This document shows, piece by piece, positions 47,803 to 53,864 of a stretch of 64,000 nucleotides of DNA. The notes below the pieces were generated by a model, which was not told the DNA's origin, did not search any database, and saw only the letters and a program-made list of their open reading frames with translations. The position numbers and the translations under genes were made by a program. The stretch is from Deltaproteobacteria bacterium (lineage in GTDB: Bacteria; Myxococcota; Kuafuiibacteriia; Kuafuiibacteriales; Kuafuiibacteriaceae). The DNA lies in NCBI GenBank assembly GCA_040218735.1, contig JAVJQW010000043.1, positions 96,001 through 160,000 on the forward strand, written 5' to 3'. How positions within the stretch are numbered: position 1 is the first letter of the stretch; every line of letters starts with the position of its first letter.

Positions 47803-48824
47803 AGGCGATCGTCGAGCGTGTAATCGAAGGCGTCGCGCGTGCGCGCGCACCGAAGGAGCCGCCGGTCCCCGCGGGCCCGATCGTCGACGGCCGCGACAAC
47901 CTGGAGCGACCGGCCTGTCCGCTGTGCGGCAACACCCGCGCGAAGCCGCTGGTCGTCGCGCGCGACACCTGGGTCGAGGGGCACGACACGTACTCCGTCG
48001 TGCGGTGCGAGGTCTGCGCGCACCGCTACACGACGCCGCGCTTCAAAGAGGCGTGTAAACACCTCGCCTTCGAGGGCGACTACCCGTTCTACACGCGGGC
48101 GCGCGAGGTCCGCGGCGGCCGGCGCGTGGATCGTGCCGAGGCGCGTCGGCCGTTCGAAGGCCGCGCGGATCGGCTGCGCGCGACGACGTCCCAGGCGGGG
48201 CGTGTCCTCGACATCGGCTGCGGCGACGGCTTCTTCCTCGACGCGATGCGCGTGCGCGGATGGTCGGTCGTCGGGACGGACGTCGAGGCGGACGTGGTGT
48301 GGCACGCCAACGAGGTGCTCGACATCGAAGCCTCCGTCTGCGACCTCGAGCGCGACCCGCTCCCGGAGGGACCGTTCGAGGCGGTCACGATGTGGGGGGT
48401 CCTGCAGCTGCTCTACCGTCCGCAGCGCGCGCTGGAGCAGGTGCGACAGCTCCTCACGGACGACGGGATCCTCGCGATCGGCGTGTCGAACATCGACAGC
48501 ACGGGCGCGCGGCTGTTCGGGCCCCGCTGGCGGGGCCTCGGGGTCCCTCGGCACCTGTCCCACTTCACGCCCAACACCCTGGAGCGCCTGCTGGCGTGGT
48601 CGGGGTTCGAGGTCGTGCACGTGCACCACGAGACGCCGCGCTGGATCGTCGCGCATTCGGCGGATGACGCGCTCGTGGGGCCTGCGTCGCGCCTCGCGAA
48701 GGCGGCGTTGGTCCCGGCGCTCGGTGTGGCCGGGCGCACGCGCTACGGGGACACGATGGAGGTGTACGCCCGTCGTATTTCCCAGTCGGGTTCGCACGCC
48801 GCTACAATGAACGCGACGCCGTGA
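47799..48824 (+). CDS. Class I SAM-dependent methyltransferase with N-terminal Zn ribbon
   Basis: GTG start overlapping the upstream stop; CPLCG..VRCEVC; VLDIGCGDG; PRHLSHF. Confidence 0.88.
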   Translation: MKAIVERVIEGVARARAPKEPPVPAGPIVDGRDNLERPACPLCGNTRAKPLVVARDTWVEGHDTYSVVRCEVCAHRYTTPRFKEACKHLAFEGDYPFYTRAREVRGGRRVDRAEARRPFEGRADRLRATTSQAGRVLDIGCGDGFFLDAMRVRGWSVVGTDVEADVVWHANEVLDIEASVCDLERDPLPEGPFEAVTMWGVLQLLYRPQRALEQVRQLLTDDGILAIGVSNIDSTGARLFGPRWRGLGVPRHLSHFTPNTLERLLAWSGFEVVHVHHETPRWIVAHSADDALVGPASRLAKAALVPALGVAGRTRYGDTMEVYARRISQSGSHAATMNATP

Positions 48825-50038
48825 ATCTCATCGCGCTCGCCATCCCGGCCTTCTTCCTGTTCATCGCCATCGAGCTGGTGGCGGCGAAGGTGATGAAGCG
48901 CGACGTCTACCGGTTCAGCGATTCGATCGCGGACCTGTCGTGTGGTGTCACGCAGCAGGTCGTGACGGTGTTCCTCGCGCTCGTCACGGTCGCCGGCTAC
49001 AAGACGCTTCAGTCGAGTTTCGGCTACTTCGAGATCCCGACCGACGCGTGGTGGGCGTGGCTGTTGTGTTTCCTCGGCGTGGACCTCTGCTACTACTGGT
49101 TCCATCGCCTCAGCCACGAGATCGCGTTTCTGTGGGGCGCGCACGTGGTGCACCACCAGAGCGAGGAGTACAACCTGACTGTCGCGCTACGGCAGTCGGC
49201 GTTCCAGCCAGGCTTTTCGTGGCTGTTCTATCTGCCGCTCGCGTTGCTCGGCTTCCCGCCGCTGATGTTCTTCACGGTGGCGGCGCTCAACACGCTCTAT
49301 CAGTTCTGGATCCACACGCGACTCATCGGGCGCATGGGTCCGCTGGAGTGGATCATCAACACGCCGTCGCACCACCGCGTGCACCACGGGCGCAACGCGC
49401 AGTACATCGACCGCAACCACGCCGGCTCGCTGATCATCTGGGACAAGCTGTTCGGGACGTTCGAGCCGGAGGGTGAAGAGGTCATCTACGGCGTGAACGA
49501 CGCGATCGATAGCTACAGCCCCATCTGGGCGAACTTCCACTACTACGTGCACACCTGGCGCCGCGCGCGTGCGTTCCCGCGGGTGTGGGATCGCGTGAAG
49601 GTCTGGTTCATGTTGCCGGGCTGGACGCCCGAGGGTGTCGCGAAGGCCGAGGGCCGCGCGCTCACCGAGCCGAAGTACGACCCGCCCGCGGAGCGCCGGA
49701 CGATTGGCTACGTGCTCGGGCAGTTCGCGTTGTTGGTGGGGCTCACGGTCGGCTACTTGTTCTTGCGCCCTTCCGAGGTCGGCTGGGCGCCGAAGATCCT
49801 GCTCGGCGTCTTCATCGTCTTGTCGGTCACGACGTTCGCGGGCCTCCTCGAGTCGCGCCGCTGGGCGCGCACCGTGGAGCTGCTGCGCCCGACCGTGCTG
49901 GTGATCGGCGCCGTGGTGTTCGTCCCCGACGCGTACGTCGCGGTGGAGTACGCCGTGCCCGCCGTGCTGTACGTGGTGCTGAGCGCGGTGGTGTTGCTGA
50001 CCCGCCGCGGTGAAGCCGCGGCGACCGTACGGGCTTAG
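48821..50038 (+). CDS. Sterol desaturase / fatty acid hydroxylase family (alkylglycerol monooxygenase-like)
   Basis: His boxes YYWFHRLSH, HVVHHQ, WIHT, HHRVHH; WDKLFGTF. Confidence 0.92.
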   Translation: MNLIALAIPAFFLFIAIELVAAKVMKRDVYRFSDSIADLSCGVTQQVVTVFLALVTVAGYKTLQSSFGYFEIPTDAWWAWLLCFLGVDLCYYWFHRLSHEIAFLWGAHVVHHQSEEYNLTVALRQSAFQPGFSWLFYLPLALLGFPPLMFFTVAALNTLYQFWIHTRLIGRMGPLEWIINTPSHHRVHHGRNAQYIDRNHAGSLIIWDKLFGTFEPEGEEVIYGVNDAIDSYSPIWANFHYYVHTWRRARAFPRVWDRVKVWFMLPGWTPEGVAKAEGRALTEPKYDPPAERRTIGYVLGQFALLVGLTVGYLFLRPSEVGWAPKILLGVFIVLSVTTFAGLLESRRWARTVELLRPTVLVIGAVVFVPDAYVAVEYAVPAVLYVVLSAVVLLTRRGEAAATVRA

Positions 50039-51203
50039 GAACAATGCCGTTCACTTGGCAGACGGACATGCCTCGAGCTCCCAGCAGGCGGCGAGGGGAC
50101 GCCTCGAGGTAGGGCAGCGCGCCGGCGCCGCGGAGCGACTCGTCCCTCGTGCGCCGTTTCGCCGGGCTGGTGAAGGCGGGGTCCGCGGAGCGCAGTGCTC
50201 CGAAGGAGGGCCGCGCTCTCGAACACCGGCTGGTATCGCTCTCACGAACTGCCCTCCGCGCGTGACGGCGGCGTCGGATGCGTTTCACGCCGAGGACGCT
50301 CGGGACACGCGCCTTGCCTAGGCGGGTAGAGCGGCGCTCGTGAATCCTGCGAGCGATGAAGGCGCGACCCAACACCTCCCGCGCCGCGTGAAGGTTGTGC
50401 GCGCGACATAGCAATCGCAGCTCGCCGACTACGCTCTTGGCGCCTAGCGCCCGCCCGCCGACATGATCGAATTCGAGGTTCGACCGTTCGCTGCATCGCC
50501 GACCGTCCGAGCTCACGTACGTGCACTGCGCGCCGTCGCGCTCCACCACCGCGCGCCGCGTCGCCGCCGAGACGTACGCTGCGCCCGCGGGCGCATCCTC
50601 GGCGGGTCTCGATCGCGGACGACTCGTCTTTCCGTTCTTTCTCCGCTCCAGCTTCTCAACGTAGAGCGCGAGCGCCGCTTCGAAGATCTCCCCGATGTCC
50701 GTCCCGGGCGGGGTGAGCTCCTTCGCGCGATCCAAGAGCGCCTTCGCTTTGGCGCTCCCGTCGAAGTGAAATGCGAACGTGCCCGGCGTCGCGGCCTCGA
50801 CGCGGTCTTCGGAGCTCTTCGCGCCCGGGAACTCGGTGGCGATCAGCATCTCGATCTCCGCCTTGGACTTGTTCCGCGCTTGCTCGACGACGCTGTGGGC
50901 GTTGTCGTCGTTCATGAACTTCGAGAGCTTGGCAACGCCGGTCATGTGCAGCTCCCCGGACGCGAGCAGCGGGAACACCTCGGGCACCCGATGCGCCGCG
51001 CGCACCACGGCGACGCGCCGGCACGCCTGGTCCTCGGTCAGCCCGAGCCCCTCCACGCAGAACCGAAACAGCGAGCTGAAGCCGCGCTCGACGTACAGCT
51101 TGCGCCGCTCGATCTCCGCCATGAACCGAAGCGCCTGGACACCGCTCTCTCGCTCCGTTCGCAGCGCATCGCGAAGTCCGCTCAAGAGATCGTTCTGGTT
51201 CAT
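49827..51203 (-). CDS. DUF222-like + HNH endonuclease (myxobacterial multi-copy type)
   Basis: AEIERRKLY..GFSSLFRFC..LGL.E..A.RR; ATRRAVVERDGAQCTYV..DGRRC....LEFDH...LRLLCRAHN. The 3' end of the ORF is probably a non-conserved extension. Confidence 0.82.
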   Translation of the reverse strand: MNQNDLLSGLRDALRTERESGVQALRFMAEIERRKLYVERGFSSLFRFCVEGLGLTEDQACRRVAVVRAAHRVPEVFPLLASGELHMTGVAKLSKFMNDDNAHSVVEQARNKSKAEIEMLIATEFPGAKSSEDRVEAATPGTFAFHFDGSAKAKALLDRAKELTPPGTDIGEIFEAALALYVEKLERRKNGKTSRPRSRPAEDAPAGAAYVSAATRRAVVERDGAQCTYVSSDGRRCSERSNLEFDHVGGRALGAKSVVGELRLLCRAHNLHAAREVLGRAFIARRIHERRSTRLGKARVPSVLGVKRIRRRRHARRAVRESDTSRCSRARPSFGALRSADPAFTSPAKRRTRDESLRGAGALPYLEASPRRLLGARGMSVCQVNGIVPKPVRSPRLHRGGSATPPRSAPRTARRARRTPPRRTRRGRTPRRRSPARSGAAAPRCAPSGATRGGPRTS

Positions 51204-51527
51204 GCAAGACAGGTTGCAAGCGCTGGACCCCATACATCGAAGATATCATCGACCCCTTCAGACGCGATTCGCCGTGCCCCGAGGATGACAGTCCGAGATC
51301 CGCGTAGACGCATCGCTCGGACCGTCAGCGCCCAAAGTCGACTCGAAGGTCAAAAAAGGTCGAAACGCACTGCGTTCGTCGACCAGAGGGCCCGGACAGG
51401 GCCTCGAAATCCGTCAACCCCCGAGAAAGAAAAAGAACGACCGCAAGTCAACTTGCGCGCCCCATCTGGCCATTTCCCCGTACCCAGCCGGCGAACCTCA
51501 CACGTGCATCGTAGCCCCGACCGGCGC

Positions 51528-52740
51528 CGGCGCACGGAACCGCCGCACCGAACGGCCGCACCGAACCTCCGCACCGAACCGCCCCACCGAACGGGCGCAC
51601 CGAACCGCCGCACCGAACCTCTGCACGGAACCGGCGCACCGAACCGCCAAACCGGAACAGCGCAGCGAACCGCCGCACCGAACGTCCGCATCGAACCTCC
51701 GCATCGAACCTCCGCACCGCACCGCCGCACCGAACCGGCGCATCGAATCTTGGCATCGAACCGGCACGCGCAGGCGGCGCACGGAACCGGCGCTTCGAAC
51801 CGCGACACCGAACGGGCGCACCAAAGCGGCGCACGGAACCTCCGCACCGAACCTCCGCACCGAAGCGGCGCGCCAACCGGCGCACTGAACCTCCGAACTG
51901 AAGCGGCGCACGGAAGCGGCGCACCGAACCGAACCGGAACGCGCAGGCGGCGCACGGAACCGGCGCTTCGAACCACGAAATCGAACGGGCGCACCAAAGC
52001 GGCGCACGGAACCTCCGCATCGAACCGCCGCGCCGAAACGCCGCGCCAAACCGCCGCATCGAAGCGCGCACACCGGCGCACGGAACCTCCGAACGGAAGC
52101 GGCGCACGGAAGCGGCGCACCGAACCGAACCGGCACGCGCTGGCGGCGCACGGAACCGGCGCACCGAACCGCGGCATCGAACGGGCGCACGGAAGCGGCG
52201 CACGGAGCGGCGCGCGGAACCTCCGCATCGAACCGCCGCATCGAACCGCCGCATCGAACCTCCGCACCGAAACTCCGCACCGAAGCGGCGCGCCAAACCG
52301 GCGCGCCAAACCGGCGCACTGAACCTCCGAACGGAAGCGGCGCACGGAATCGGCGCACCGGACCGAACCGGAACGCGCAGGCGGCGCACGGAACCGGCGC
52401 TTCGAACAACGACATCGAACGGGCGCACCAAAGCGGCGCACGGAACCTCCGCATCGAACCTCCGCACCGCACCGCCGCACCGAACCGGCGCATCGAAATT
52501 CGGCATCGAACCGGCACGCGCAGGCGGCGCACGGAACCGGCGCTTCGAACCGCGACATCGAACGGGCGCACCAAAGCGGCGCACGGAAGCGGCGCGCGGA
52601 ACCTCCGCACCGAACCTCCGCGCCGAACCGCCGCACCGAATGGGCGCACCAAAGCGGCGCACGGAACCTCCGCATCGAACCGGCGCACGGAAGCGTCGCT
52701 CGGAAGCGTCGAACCGTCTCCCCAAACCGTCTCACCGAAC
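51528..52740. repeat. Degenerate 13-bp tandem satellite (consensus near GAACCKSCGCACS), about 90 units
   Basis: GAAC recurs at 51537, 51550, 51563, 51576 and onward; 13-aa periodicity in all translated frames; T-poor plus strand. Confidence 0.95.
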
Positions 52741-53156
52741 CAGCGCGGCATCGAGCGACCCTCCTTGCACGAAGCGAGAACCTTCGAGCCCCGTGAGCGA
52801 CGAAGGGATGGCCGCGGCGCGCGGGCCTCCGCGGGATCCAATCTGGCGTCTCCAATGACGGCGAGGCTCCGGCCGTCCCTCGCCAACAGAAGGCCGGACC
52901 GCACCTCCGACTTCGGCCGGAAGCCTTCTGTGACTCGTTTCGCAATCTTCCCCCAGGAGCGTTCGATGCAGTCCCGGTTCGCTTCGATATTCGGGCGTAT
53001 CTCATCAGCGAGCGGGGCAGTGCGGCCGTCGCGAATCGGGAGGGCGCCTGTGCGTCCCGATTGCCAACCGCCCCAACGCTCTCCGCTACGCGCACGGCGA
53101 ACGGGCGAAGGCAGGGCCCGCCAGGTGGACCAAGTCACCCCGAGCCGATCACGGCA

Positions 53157-53813
53157 TTACGCAGACAGACGCGCCGGCAACGAAGCCGGGGTGTTGGCGC
53201 GCGCGCCGTCGCGCTCCAGCAGCACGTTCGACCCTGCGCCGCAGCCGATCACCGAGCGCATGGTGTCTTCGACCGACGCATCGATCTCCTCCACGCGATC
53301 GGGCGGGAGGTGGAAGATGTTTCCCGAGGTCGGGTTGGGGCCGGTCGGGACGAAGACCGAGTACCAGCCGTTGCGGTGGCGGTCGGTGACAAACGCGGTC
53401 ATGAGCGCGTCGCCGTAGGGGCGGACCAGCGCGACGGAGGTGAACGGTGACTTCTCGCGCCCGATGAGCTGCACGATCGTCTCCTTCACGAGCCGGTAGC
53501 CGGGGATGCCGTGCAGGATCTTCATCTCCAGGGTTTCGTGCAGGAACCGACCGAGCTGCGTTCGGACGATCACCCCGGTCAGGAAACACGCGGCGACCAT
53601 GACCGCGAGCACGACGATGATCGCGACGTACTCACGGAGCTCGGTCCGCGCGACGAGGACGTTCGTGAAGGGGCGGACGATGGTGCGTAGCAGATCGAAG
53701 ACCCACGCGCCGACCGCGAGGAGGACGCCGATCGGGAGCAGGACGCCGACGCCGCCGAGGAGAGAGGTGCTGAGGAACGAGCGTGCGCGACTCACTCGAT
53801 CAACGGTGGTCAC
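53157..53813 (-). CDS. DUF502 membrane protein
   Basis: GGVGVLLPI, two TMs, IPGYRLVKE, VFVPTGPNPTSG. Confidence 0.88.
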   Translation of the reverse strand: MTTVDRVSRARSFLSTSLLGGVGVLLPIGVLLAVGAWVFDLLRTIVRPFTNVLVARTELREYVAIIVVLAVMVAACFLTGVIVRTQLGRFLHETLEMKILHGIPGYRLVKETIVQLIGREKSPFTSVALVRPYGDALMTAFVTDRHRNGWYSVFVPTGPNPTSGNIFHLPPDRVEEIDASVEDTMRSVIGCGAGSNVLLERDGARANTPASLPARLSA

Positions 53814-53864
53814 CGATTCTCGGGCGTCACCCCCCGCGTTCGATCTCACGCCCAACGCAGGGCG

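Follow-up and report, generated by a model that had tools for sequence, protein, structure and literature searches.

Introduction

Several described systems resemble parts of the locus studied here. The REP13E12 units of Mycobacterium tuberculosis are roughly 1.4-1.8 kb long. The insertion sequences of the IS5 and IS630 groups use DDE transposases and target CTAG/YTAR or TA, bacterial minisatellites are known from variable-number tandem repeat (VNTR) loci such as MIRU-VNTR, and TIGR-Tas systems have units of ~36 nt, in which the spacers are paired, together with a Tas protein that contains a Nop domain. An excerpt of one published account (PMC10589994) names 'REP13E12/HNH endonuclease/DUF222' among repetitive elements. 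Here, we analyzed a stretch of 64,000 nt (the window; positions 96,001 to 160,000 of contig JAVJQW010000043.1, assembly GCA_040218735.1) from a Deltaproteobacteria bacterium of the Myxococcota. The original prediction, made from the sequence alone, had described in it an HNH endonuclease gene preceded by a degenerate 13-bp satellite. We found that the gene belongs to a multicopy mobile element, and that the satellite probably arose within one arm of an old copy.

Results and Discussion

The HNH Gene Belongs to a Multicopy Element

The nuclease is encoded by the sole gene of a selfish element of ~1.8 kb, which has terminal inverted repeats (TIRs) of ~30 bp and occurs in ~25-35 copies. The window's genome is an 11.6-Mb draft of 70 contigs with ~70% GC, broken at repeats. 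A tblastn search of this genome with the conserved core of the protein gave ~30 copies at ~90% amino acid identity, many of them cut by contig ends. When positions 49500-53300 were compared with the genome by blastn, the copies had sharp common borders; at least 13 alignments start exactly at 50042, and more start within a few bases of it. Complete copies of ~1.8 kb were found at C29:143932-145730 and C33:76221-78023. A census with an nhmmer profile gave 73 pieces, with 24-35 over any profile position and two copies assembled whole. The element causes a quarter of the breaks in the assembly, 35 of the 140 contig ends falling in it.

Both ends of the element carry the inverted repeat of ~30 bp (...CCGCTAAGTGAACGGCATTG read outward), which in the window starts CAATGCCGTTCACTTGGCAGACGG... 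on the plus strand at 50042. The genome contains 52 occurrences of the 20-nt core of this repeat, 43 of which fall in known copies; the 9 stray matches look like chance, and no other element that bears the repeat, and might supply a transposase in trans, was found in the genome. CTAG, CTAA or TTAG (YTAR) stands no more than 10 nt beyond 32 of these 43 ends, and for 26 of them the offset is exactly 3 nt; such a site is present in 0.4% of random 10-nt windows. In this GC-rich genome such sites are mostly stop codons. The window element adjoins the TAG stop (50036-50038) of a fatty-acid hydroxylase gene, 3 nt from the 3' terminal repeat, and is wedged between the stop codons of the convergent hydroxylase and DUF502 genes. 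The C33 copy is flanked by CCGCTAGCG and CCGCTAACG.

Another repeated element of ~79-80 bp (MITE/REP-like, that is, resembling miniature inverted-repeat transposable elements or repetitive extragenic palindromes; GGCCATAACGG...CAGCCTAG) is stacked in tandem beside several ends of the HNH element. It was seen at C4:161899-162254, C42:353456-353691 and C14:782-936, where Tandem Repeats Finder (TRF) reports it as period-79/80 'arrays', and it appears to share the CTAG insertion site with the HNH element.

Many dispersed copies, common sharp ends and TIRs are properties of an insertion sequence. However, the usual combination of a transposase and a target-site duplication was not found. No recognized transposase (DDE, HUH, serine, tyrosine, DEDD) is present; the HNH protein is the sole conserved open reading frame (ORF), and Pfam gave no transposase family. 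The copies are under purifying selection, with a median ratio of nonsynonymous to synonymous substitution rates (dN/dS) of 0.18 (21 pairs, 7 full-length copies). The window copy differs from the others at dS 0.25-0.33 (dN/dS in Table 1), and it and the C21 copy are the most diverged of all (dS 0.25-0.35).

The HNH Protein

The gene lies on the minus strand and starts with an ATG at 51233 or 51203; its conserved core (51203-50320) encodes 294 aa. The window protein matched no Pfam family at E<=0.01, and at E<=10 it gave just a chance SCA7 row. Its identity as an HNH protein is supported through its homologues, 33 of 47 of which match PF01844 at E<=0.01 (best 1.2e-6), and through conserved residues. 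C227, C237, C266, H269 and N270 are invariant in 47 sequences and H247 is conserved in >=90%. The AlphaFold2 (AF2) model places strands at 244-247 and 262-265, followed by a helix at 267-278, so that alignment and model agree on a beta-beta-alpha core with four conserved Cys zinc ligands and the catalytic His/Asn. DUF222 (PF02720), the other family named in the original prediction, was matched by 2 of the 47 homologues (best E 1.7e-4) and not by the window protein. Among the top Atlas clusters, PF01844 is found on 55-76% of members, and one cluster (score 0.96) has DUF222 on 23%. Foldseek gave no match in the PDB at E<=0.001; the best rows for the C-terminal part are McrA HNH enzymes, which are weak (E 0.026-0.4), and the N-terminal domain weakly resembles ParB/KorB DNA-binding folds (E 0.6-2.3).

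The gene had been drawn down to 49827, and this extent is not upheld. Intact paralogues end at ~330 aa, and codon-position GC is flat in the open frame beyond the core (0.65/0.73/0.77, vs 0.68/0.49/0.85 in the core). In the window copy, the frame changes in the C-terminal tail after about residue 300 and the family stop is lost; the shifted frame continues through the terminal repeat and then runs antisense into the hydroxylase gene (49827-50319, minus). The end at 49827 is an open-frame artefact, and the tail is not coding.

The Array Begins Where the Window Copy Departs from the Family

TRF reported the array at 51527-52692 with period 13, 89.0 copies, 69% matches, 5% indels and a score of 654, and overlapping period-13 rows extend its tail to 52741. 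Splitting the array at its GAA anchors gave 93 anchors and 92 intervals, with interval lengths that include 13 nt (49 intervals), 12 nt (10), 14 nt (8) and 26 nt (5). The plus-strand unit is GAAC-NNNC-GCAY-S. Across the array, AT skew is 0.44-0.78 and GC skew lies between -0.06 and -0.31, with an A-/C-rich plus strand. The description of about 90 strand-biased tandem units in which fixed and variable positions alternate is therefore correct. Within the array, blocks of 143 nt at 51868, 52064 and 52302 are 91-92% identical to each other, and a block of ~130 nt is found twice, at 51706 and 52456. A whole-genome TRF run showed that it is the sole long period-13 array in the genome (the 12 other period-13 rows with score >=50 have 2.2-6.0 copies) and has the top score among arrays of period <=20.

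The near end of the array lies 324 bp from the 51203 start, in agreement with the ~325 bp first proposed. Most of the blastn alignments with other copies that reach this region end at 51533-51534 (one extends to 51546), and the other copies run ~300 nt past the point equivalent to 51534. Thus, the start of the array coincides exactly with the point at which the window copy parts from the family. The proposal that nuclease and array form one selfish element holds in this sense: the gene belongs to such an element, and the array starts at the departure point of the family. The part of the proposal that made the array a working partner is not supported. The proximal arm has two sites with a hairpin and T-run (51457-51442, 51377-51363) and a conserved TTGACG box, and the array lies upstream of all of these. 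A sigma-70 promoter scan gave 0 sites, and the 3 terminator-like sites do not exceed shuffles.

Beyond the array, small-word blastn found two weak collinear same-strand matches to the distal 5' arm of the copies C53, C32 and C8: copy positions 184-217 match window 52838-52805, and 114-156 match 52902-52863 (E 1.2e-4 and 1e-3 in a 470-nt search). These matches suggest that the window copy is most likely an old copy with a decayed distal arm and the array inside it.

Arrays at Other Copies of the Element

The original prediction had called for a search for arrays beside other copies of this HNH family. Three other copies do carry arrays (Table 1), with different units, and the remaining ~25-30 copies in the genome have no such array. 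All four element arrays (9, 13, 40 and 67 bp) lie in untranslated arms and differ in unit, period and position, their sites falling at profile positions ~93-201, ~263, ~1527 and ~1658.

Two of the sister arrays arose in place. The C21 array is internal to its element, with profile matches flanking it at 13-93 and 201-1559, and ordinary copies have at this site a CGGCCCGCG-like 9-bp repeat in one to about four units; aligned to the canonical element, the 9-bp array unit scores within shuffles. For the C52 array, the 40-bp unit aligned to positions 1640-1686 of the canonical 3' arm and scored 49, vs a shuffle maximum of 33. The window array is of the minisatellite or VNTR kind in that its units stand head-to-tail and its composition is non-coding, and a change of copy number is seen for the sister 9-bp repeat.

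Long arrays (>=300 bp) abut the element in 4 of 71 cases, vs 0.67 expected from its footprint, an expectation not restricted to non-coding DNA. Eight of the arrays have a period not divisible by 3; two of these are CRISPR and three abut the element (3/6 of the non-CRISPR arrays).

The distal 5' arm, which holds the window and C21 arrays, is the most indel-prone stretch of the element. Deletions in it measure ~90 nt, common to three copies, and ~117 nt in one (C52:1-807, C9:780375-781042, C20:285991-286505, C67:1-773).

Origin of the Array

We consider that the array probably grew by local slippage or unequal exchange within the distal 5' arm of an old copy, where the DNA is unconstrained. A short local duplication would have arisen in the untranslated arm of this diverged copy. 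Slippage during replication, together with unequal exchange, would then have expanded it to ~90 diverged units that form higher-order blocks and take the place of ~85 nt of arm sequence. The array would have no role of its own, and would persist because the arm of a dead element is unconstrained DNA; it is thus probably incidental to the nuclease and not a functional partner of it. Growth by block duplication is indicated by the 143-nt blocks themselves, which are 91-92% alike vs 69% for single units. We infer the slippage mechanism, the neutrality of the array and the in-situ origin of the window 13-mer.

Several observations weigh against this reading. The window 13-mer has no significant match to the canonical element (scores 16-25, within shuffles); therefore, its in-situ origin rests on the continuity at the junction and on the analogy with two sister arrays. 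The 67-bp unit of C64 has no significant match to the canonical element either. The matches in the tail have a genome-wide E of 3.0, and for just 3 of 13 copies (C53, C32, C8) is the tail outscored by as few as 2-3 of 300 random genomic windows. A profile search with the whole element found nothing beyond the array, and the 5' terminal repeat is not recognizable in 53070-53165, where scores are within background. The locus may accordingly be a truncated element copy abutting an unrelated satellite. Finally, the enrichment of arrays at the element exceeds what simple neutrality obviously predicts.

This enrichment would be better explained if the arrays were scars of repair, the nick-and-repair product of the original prediction; we regard this main rival as unlikely but worth weighing. 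The HNH protein would nick or cut in or beside the arms of the element, and error-prone repair (template switching, microhomology-primed re-synthesis) would lay down tandem copies. The excess of abutting arrays, among them 3 of the 8 with non-triplet periods (two of the 8 being CRISPR), is consistent with it, as are the confinement of all four to untranslated arms, the gene that is intact and under selection in the array-bearing copies, and the deletions that several copies have in the same 5' arm. However, the four sites differ and no common motif was seen among them, and the homologous multicopy elements of two other genomes (G003 and G036) are without arrays in 27 loci. Slippage at the pre-existing 9-bp repeat accounts for the C21 array without a nuclease.

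The 13-bp Unit at Other Loci

When one genome per species was scanned for two cores at a distance of 13 bp, 66 loci were recovered, most of which belong to Actinomycetota. Thirteen-bp arrays of about 5-13 copies are held by 11 of them, and at L047, in a 'Deltaproteobacteria' metagenome-assembled genome, the 13-bp unit is identical to the window consensus. Units with the 9-nt core GTTCGGTGC and four variable bases were seen in 5-13 copies in unrelated phyla and near unrelated genes (L047, L050, L080, L097, L044, L085, L089, L093, L103, L105), and a rough estimate made without a control pattern suggests that such repeats are more frequent than chance. Metagenome contigs gave at least 121 loci with the core pair, most of them two-copy duplications, and a scan of viral contigs for the 13-mer pair gave 0 matches. 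The tie between array and HNH genes that had been proposed is not supported, since same-core 13-bp arrays stand apart from HNH genes, an outcome that the original prediction had named as refuting it: an HNH homologue lies within 2.5 kb at 0 of the 66 genome loci and at 1 among the metagenome matches listed. No common neighbor of same-core 13-bp arrays was found among the 29 flanking ORFs of 10 loci.

The metagenomic locus L188 (653-674 and 945-2048) has two same-core units ~280-290 bp upstream of an HNH homologue with 36-39% identity. They stand just before a T-run and a TTGACG box like those of the window element, in the opposite orientation relative to the gene. We regard this co-occurrence as a probable coincidence. 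One further homologue locus has a single plus-strand copy of the core and another has a single copy on the opposite strand.

A working role for the array is very unlikely. It could hold binding sites for the N-terminal helical domain of the HNH protein or be the template of a repetitive RNA that partners the nuclease, roles also put forward in the original prediction. Such a role would fit the fixed position of the array relative to the gene, the alternation of fixed and variable positions in the unit, the weak likeness of the N-terminal domain to ParB/KorB folds and the two units at L188. However, just one of the ~25-35 copies has the 13-bp unit, which differs from an iteron that recurs at every copy, and the units of the sister arrays are unrelated to it. 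Canonical elements do not contain the core, nor do 15 of the 17 other homologue loci that were checked, and the L188 motif is turned the other way. The same core is found in 13-bp repeats beside unrelated genes in other phyla. The units of the window array are 69% alike, the folding of either strand is no better than that of shuffles (z 0.17 and 1.72), and an Rfam scan of 49500-53500 at E<=1 gave no match.

Two guide systems were also considered. A CRISPR array was rejected, as it had been from the start, on the anatomy of the unit: the unit is 13 nt long, has just 4 variable positions of low diversity, and leaves no unique spacers of ~25-40 nt. TIGR-Tas was rejected since the period is 13 vs units of ~36 nt and no Nop domain was found in Pfam or in the fold search.

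Assembly Support and Coding Potential

Because the draft is broken at repeats, the array or most of its length might be a short-read mis-assembly; we consider this highly improbable. Both junctions are bridged by contigs of run X1, which show 0 differences and are likely from the source run, and of runs X2/X3 from another study, with 16-21 differences. The spans are 51099/51108-51631/51619 at the proximal junction and 52652/52653-53400 at the distal one, and an X4 contig also bridges the latter, so that contigs from three studies contribute. The edges of the array are not an assembly artefact; this support covers the junctions and not the length of the array. Short X2/X3 contigs have joints that skip 467 and 789 nt within the array, as a mis-assembly would predict, but the sides of these joints are <30 nt and the tool flags them as unreliable. 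Moreover, the units are diverged enough (69%) for placement, and the higher-order blocks differ by 8-9%.

A repetitive protein encoded across the array, for example in the frame 51350-53095 (minus, 581 aa), deserves next to no credence and had been doubted from the beginning: on the minus strand none of the three frames is interrupted within the array, and on the plus strand one frame stays open through most of it, because one strand is poor in T and the other in A, whereas the period is not a multiple of 3, four ORFs have no Pfam match, and codon-position GC is flat at 0.67-0.73 compared with 0.85-0.93 at third positions of the neighboring genes.

Homologues in Other Genomes

Related HNH genes were found in 7 of 41 genomes, including the window's own, with 40 matching pieces in G036, 13 in G003, 3 in G030 and 1 in G001. 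In G003 (L033-L038) and G036 (L013-L027) the gene is carried on shared multicopy units of ~1.5-1.6 kb, whose 3' ends also adjoin CTA(G/A). Related multicopy families are thus present in other Myxococcota, and the copies of one of them (G003) are 98-99% identical, which suggests recent activity. At 30 HNH-homologue loci in four other genomes there is no long short-period array, the largest repeats nearby being 131 bp x2.3, 69 bp x1.9 and 45 bp x2.5. HNH homologues at these loci lack arrays, which the original prediction had also named as an outcome that would refute it.

Neighboring Genes and Other Repeats

The features of the locus and the sister arrays are collected in Table 1. In the empty-site comparison that the original prediction had called for, orthologues of the hydroxylase gene in other genomes are cut by a contig end (G001, same genus), without synteny (G006) or at a contig edge (G004).

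Table 1. Features of the HNH element locus in the window and arrays at other copies of the element (TRF, Tandem Repeats Finder; pLDDT, predicted local distance difference test).
Feature	Position	Strand	Period and copies	Evidence
Fatty-acid hydroxylase (desaturase-like) host gene	48821..50038	+		PF04116 E 1.1e-29; codon-position GC 0.62/0.42/0.93
3' untranslated arm of HNH element	50042..50319	-		Shared blastn start 50042; terminal repeat common to both family ends
HNH nuclease gene of element	50320..51233	-		~90% aa identity to ~30 paralogues; homologues with PF01844; AF2 pLDDT 92.8; dN/dS 0.15-0.21
Proximal 5' untranslated arm common to other copies	51234..51534	-		blastn; 5'-arm alignment; terminator-like matches
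Degenerate tandem array with higher-order blocks	51527..52741	.	13 bp, ~90 units	TRF; unit list; 143-nt blocks; flat codon-position GC in all frames; no Pfam match
Unique tail between array and DUF502 stop	52742..53156	-		52805-52838 and 52863-52902 resemble canonical distal 5' arm
DUF502 host gene, convergent with hydroxylase gene	53157..53855	-		PF04367 E 1.1e-11
C21 copy array			9 bp, 36 copies	98% match
C52 copy array			40 bp, 25 copies	
C64 copy array			67 bp, 11.4 copies	

Other arrays with non-triplet periods are not next to the HNH element: C28:114074-114406 (16 bp x20.7, 92%), C18:329930-330124 (14 bp x13.7), C41:85203-85548 (58 bp x5.9) and C60:189411-189879 (89 bp x5.4). They are presumably non-coding, judged from periods not divisible by 3. 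Arrays of period 73-76 at the contig starts C27:59-1743 and C29:22-1567, with the constant part CTTCCCGACCGCGACGCGGTCGGGCTCCGTTGAAGC, have a CRISPR-like look.

Significance

The element matters more than the satellite. It is compact, high in copy number and bounded by inverted repeats, and its sole gene is an HNH nuclease under purifying selection. A bolder reading, which we hold to be quite unlikely, is that the HNH protein is the mobility enzyme of an undescribed class of TIR-bounded single-gene insertion sequences, which would lack DDE, HUH or recombinase enzymes, stand beside CTAG-type stops and have expanded independently in several Myxococcota genomes, with nicks in its own arms seeding the four satellites. 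If the HNH protein moves the element, it would represent a new transposase chemistry and would also provide an explanation for repeats of the REP13E12 type, which have long lacked one. The literature searched, as far as its accessible text extends, gave no description of an HNH-only transposable element or of an HNH-based transposition mechanism. The satellite, for its part, would indicate that an array of 1.2 kb with higher-order blocks, similar to satellites of eukaryotes, can form in a bacterial genome within the dead arm of a mobile element.

Comparison with Known Systems

TIGR-Tas, CRISPR and IscB-omega RNA systems resemble this locus in that a gene with an HNH domain has a repeat array or a non-coding region next to it, and the HNH region here weakly matches the IscB model (E 4e-4 to 2e-3; cut-off 175 bits). 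However, the locus has no guide-length spacers, no Nop or RuvC domain by Pfam or fold search, and no Rfam HEARO match. The IS5 and IS630 groups are likewise compact, with terminal inverted repeats and many copies, and YTAR stands beside both ends of the element here; the difference is that its sole conserved ORF is the HNH protein and no DDE transposase is present.

REP13E12/DUF222-HNH of M. tuberculosis is similar as a repeated unit whose sole gene combines an N-terminal helical domain with a C-terminal HNH nuclease. It belongs to a different phylum and has a far lower copy number than the element described here. Furthermore, the present element has clear TIRs and CTAG/CTAA/TTAG at both ends, and the window protein is below the Pfam thresholds of DUF222 and HNH.

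The array itself is closest to bacterial minisatellites and VNTR loci. It shares with them non-coding units placed head-to-tail; between copies of the element the 9-bp repeat varies from one to about four units vs 36 units, and the higher-order blocks indicate unequal exchange. However, ~90 degenerate units over 1.2 kb are unusual for a 13-bp bacterial repeat, and this array lies inside the arm of a mobile element.

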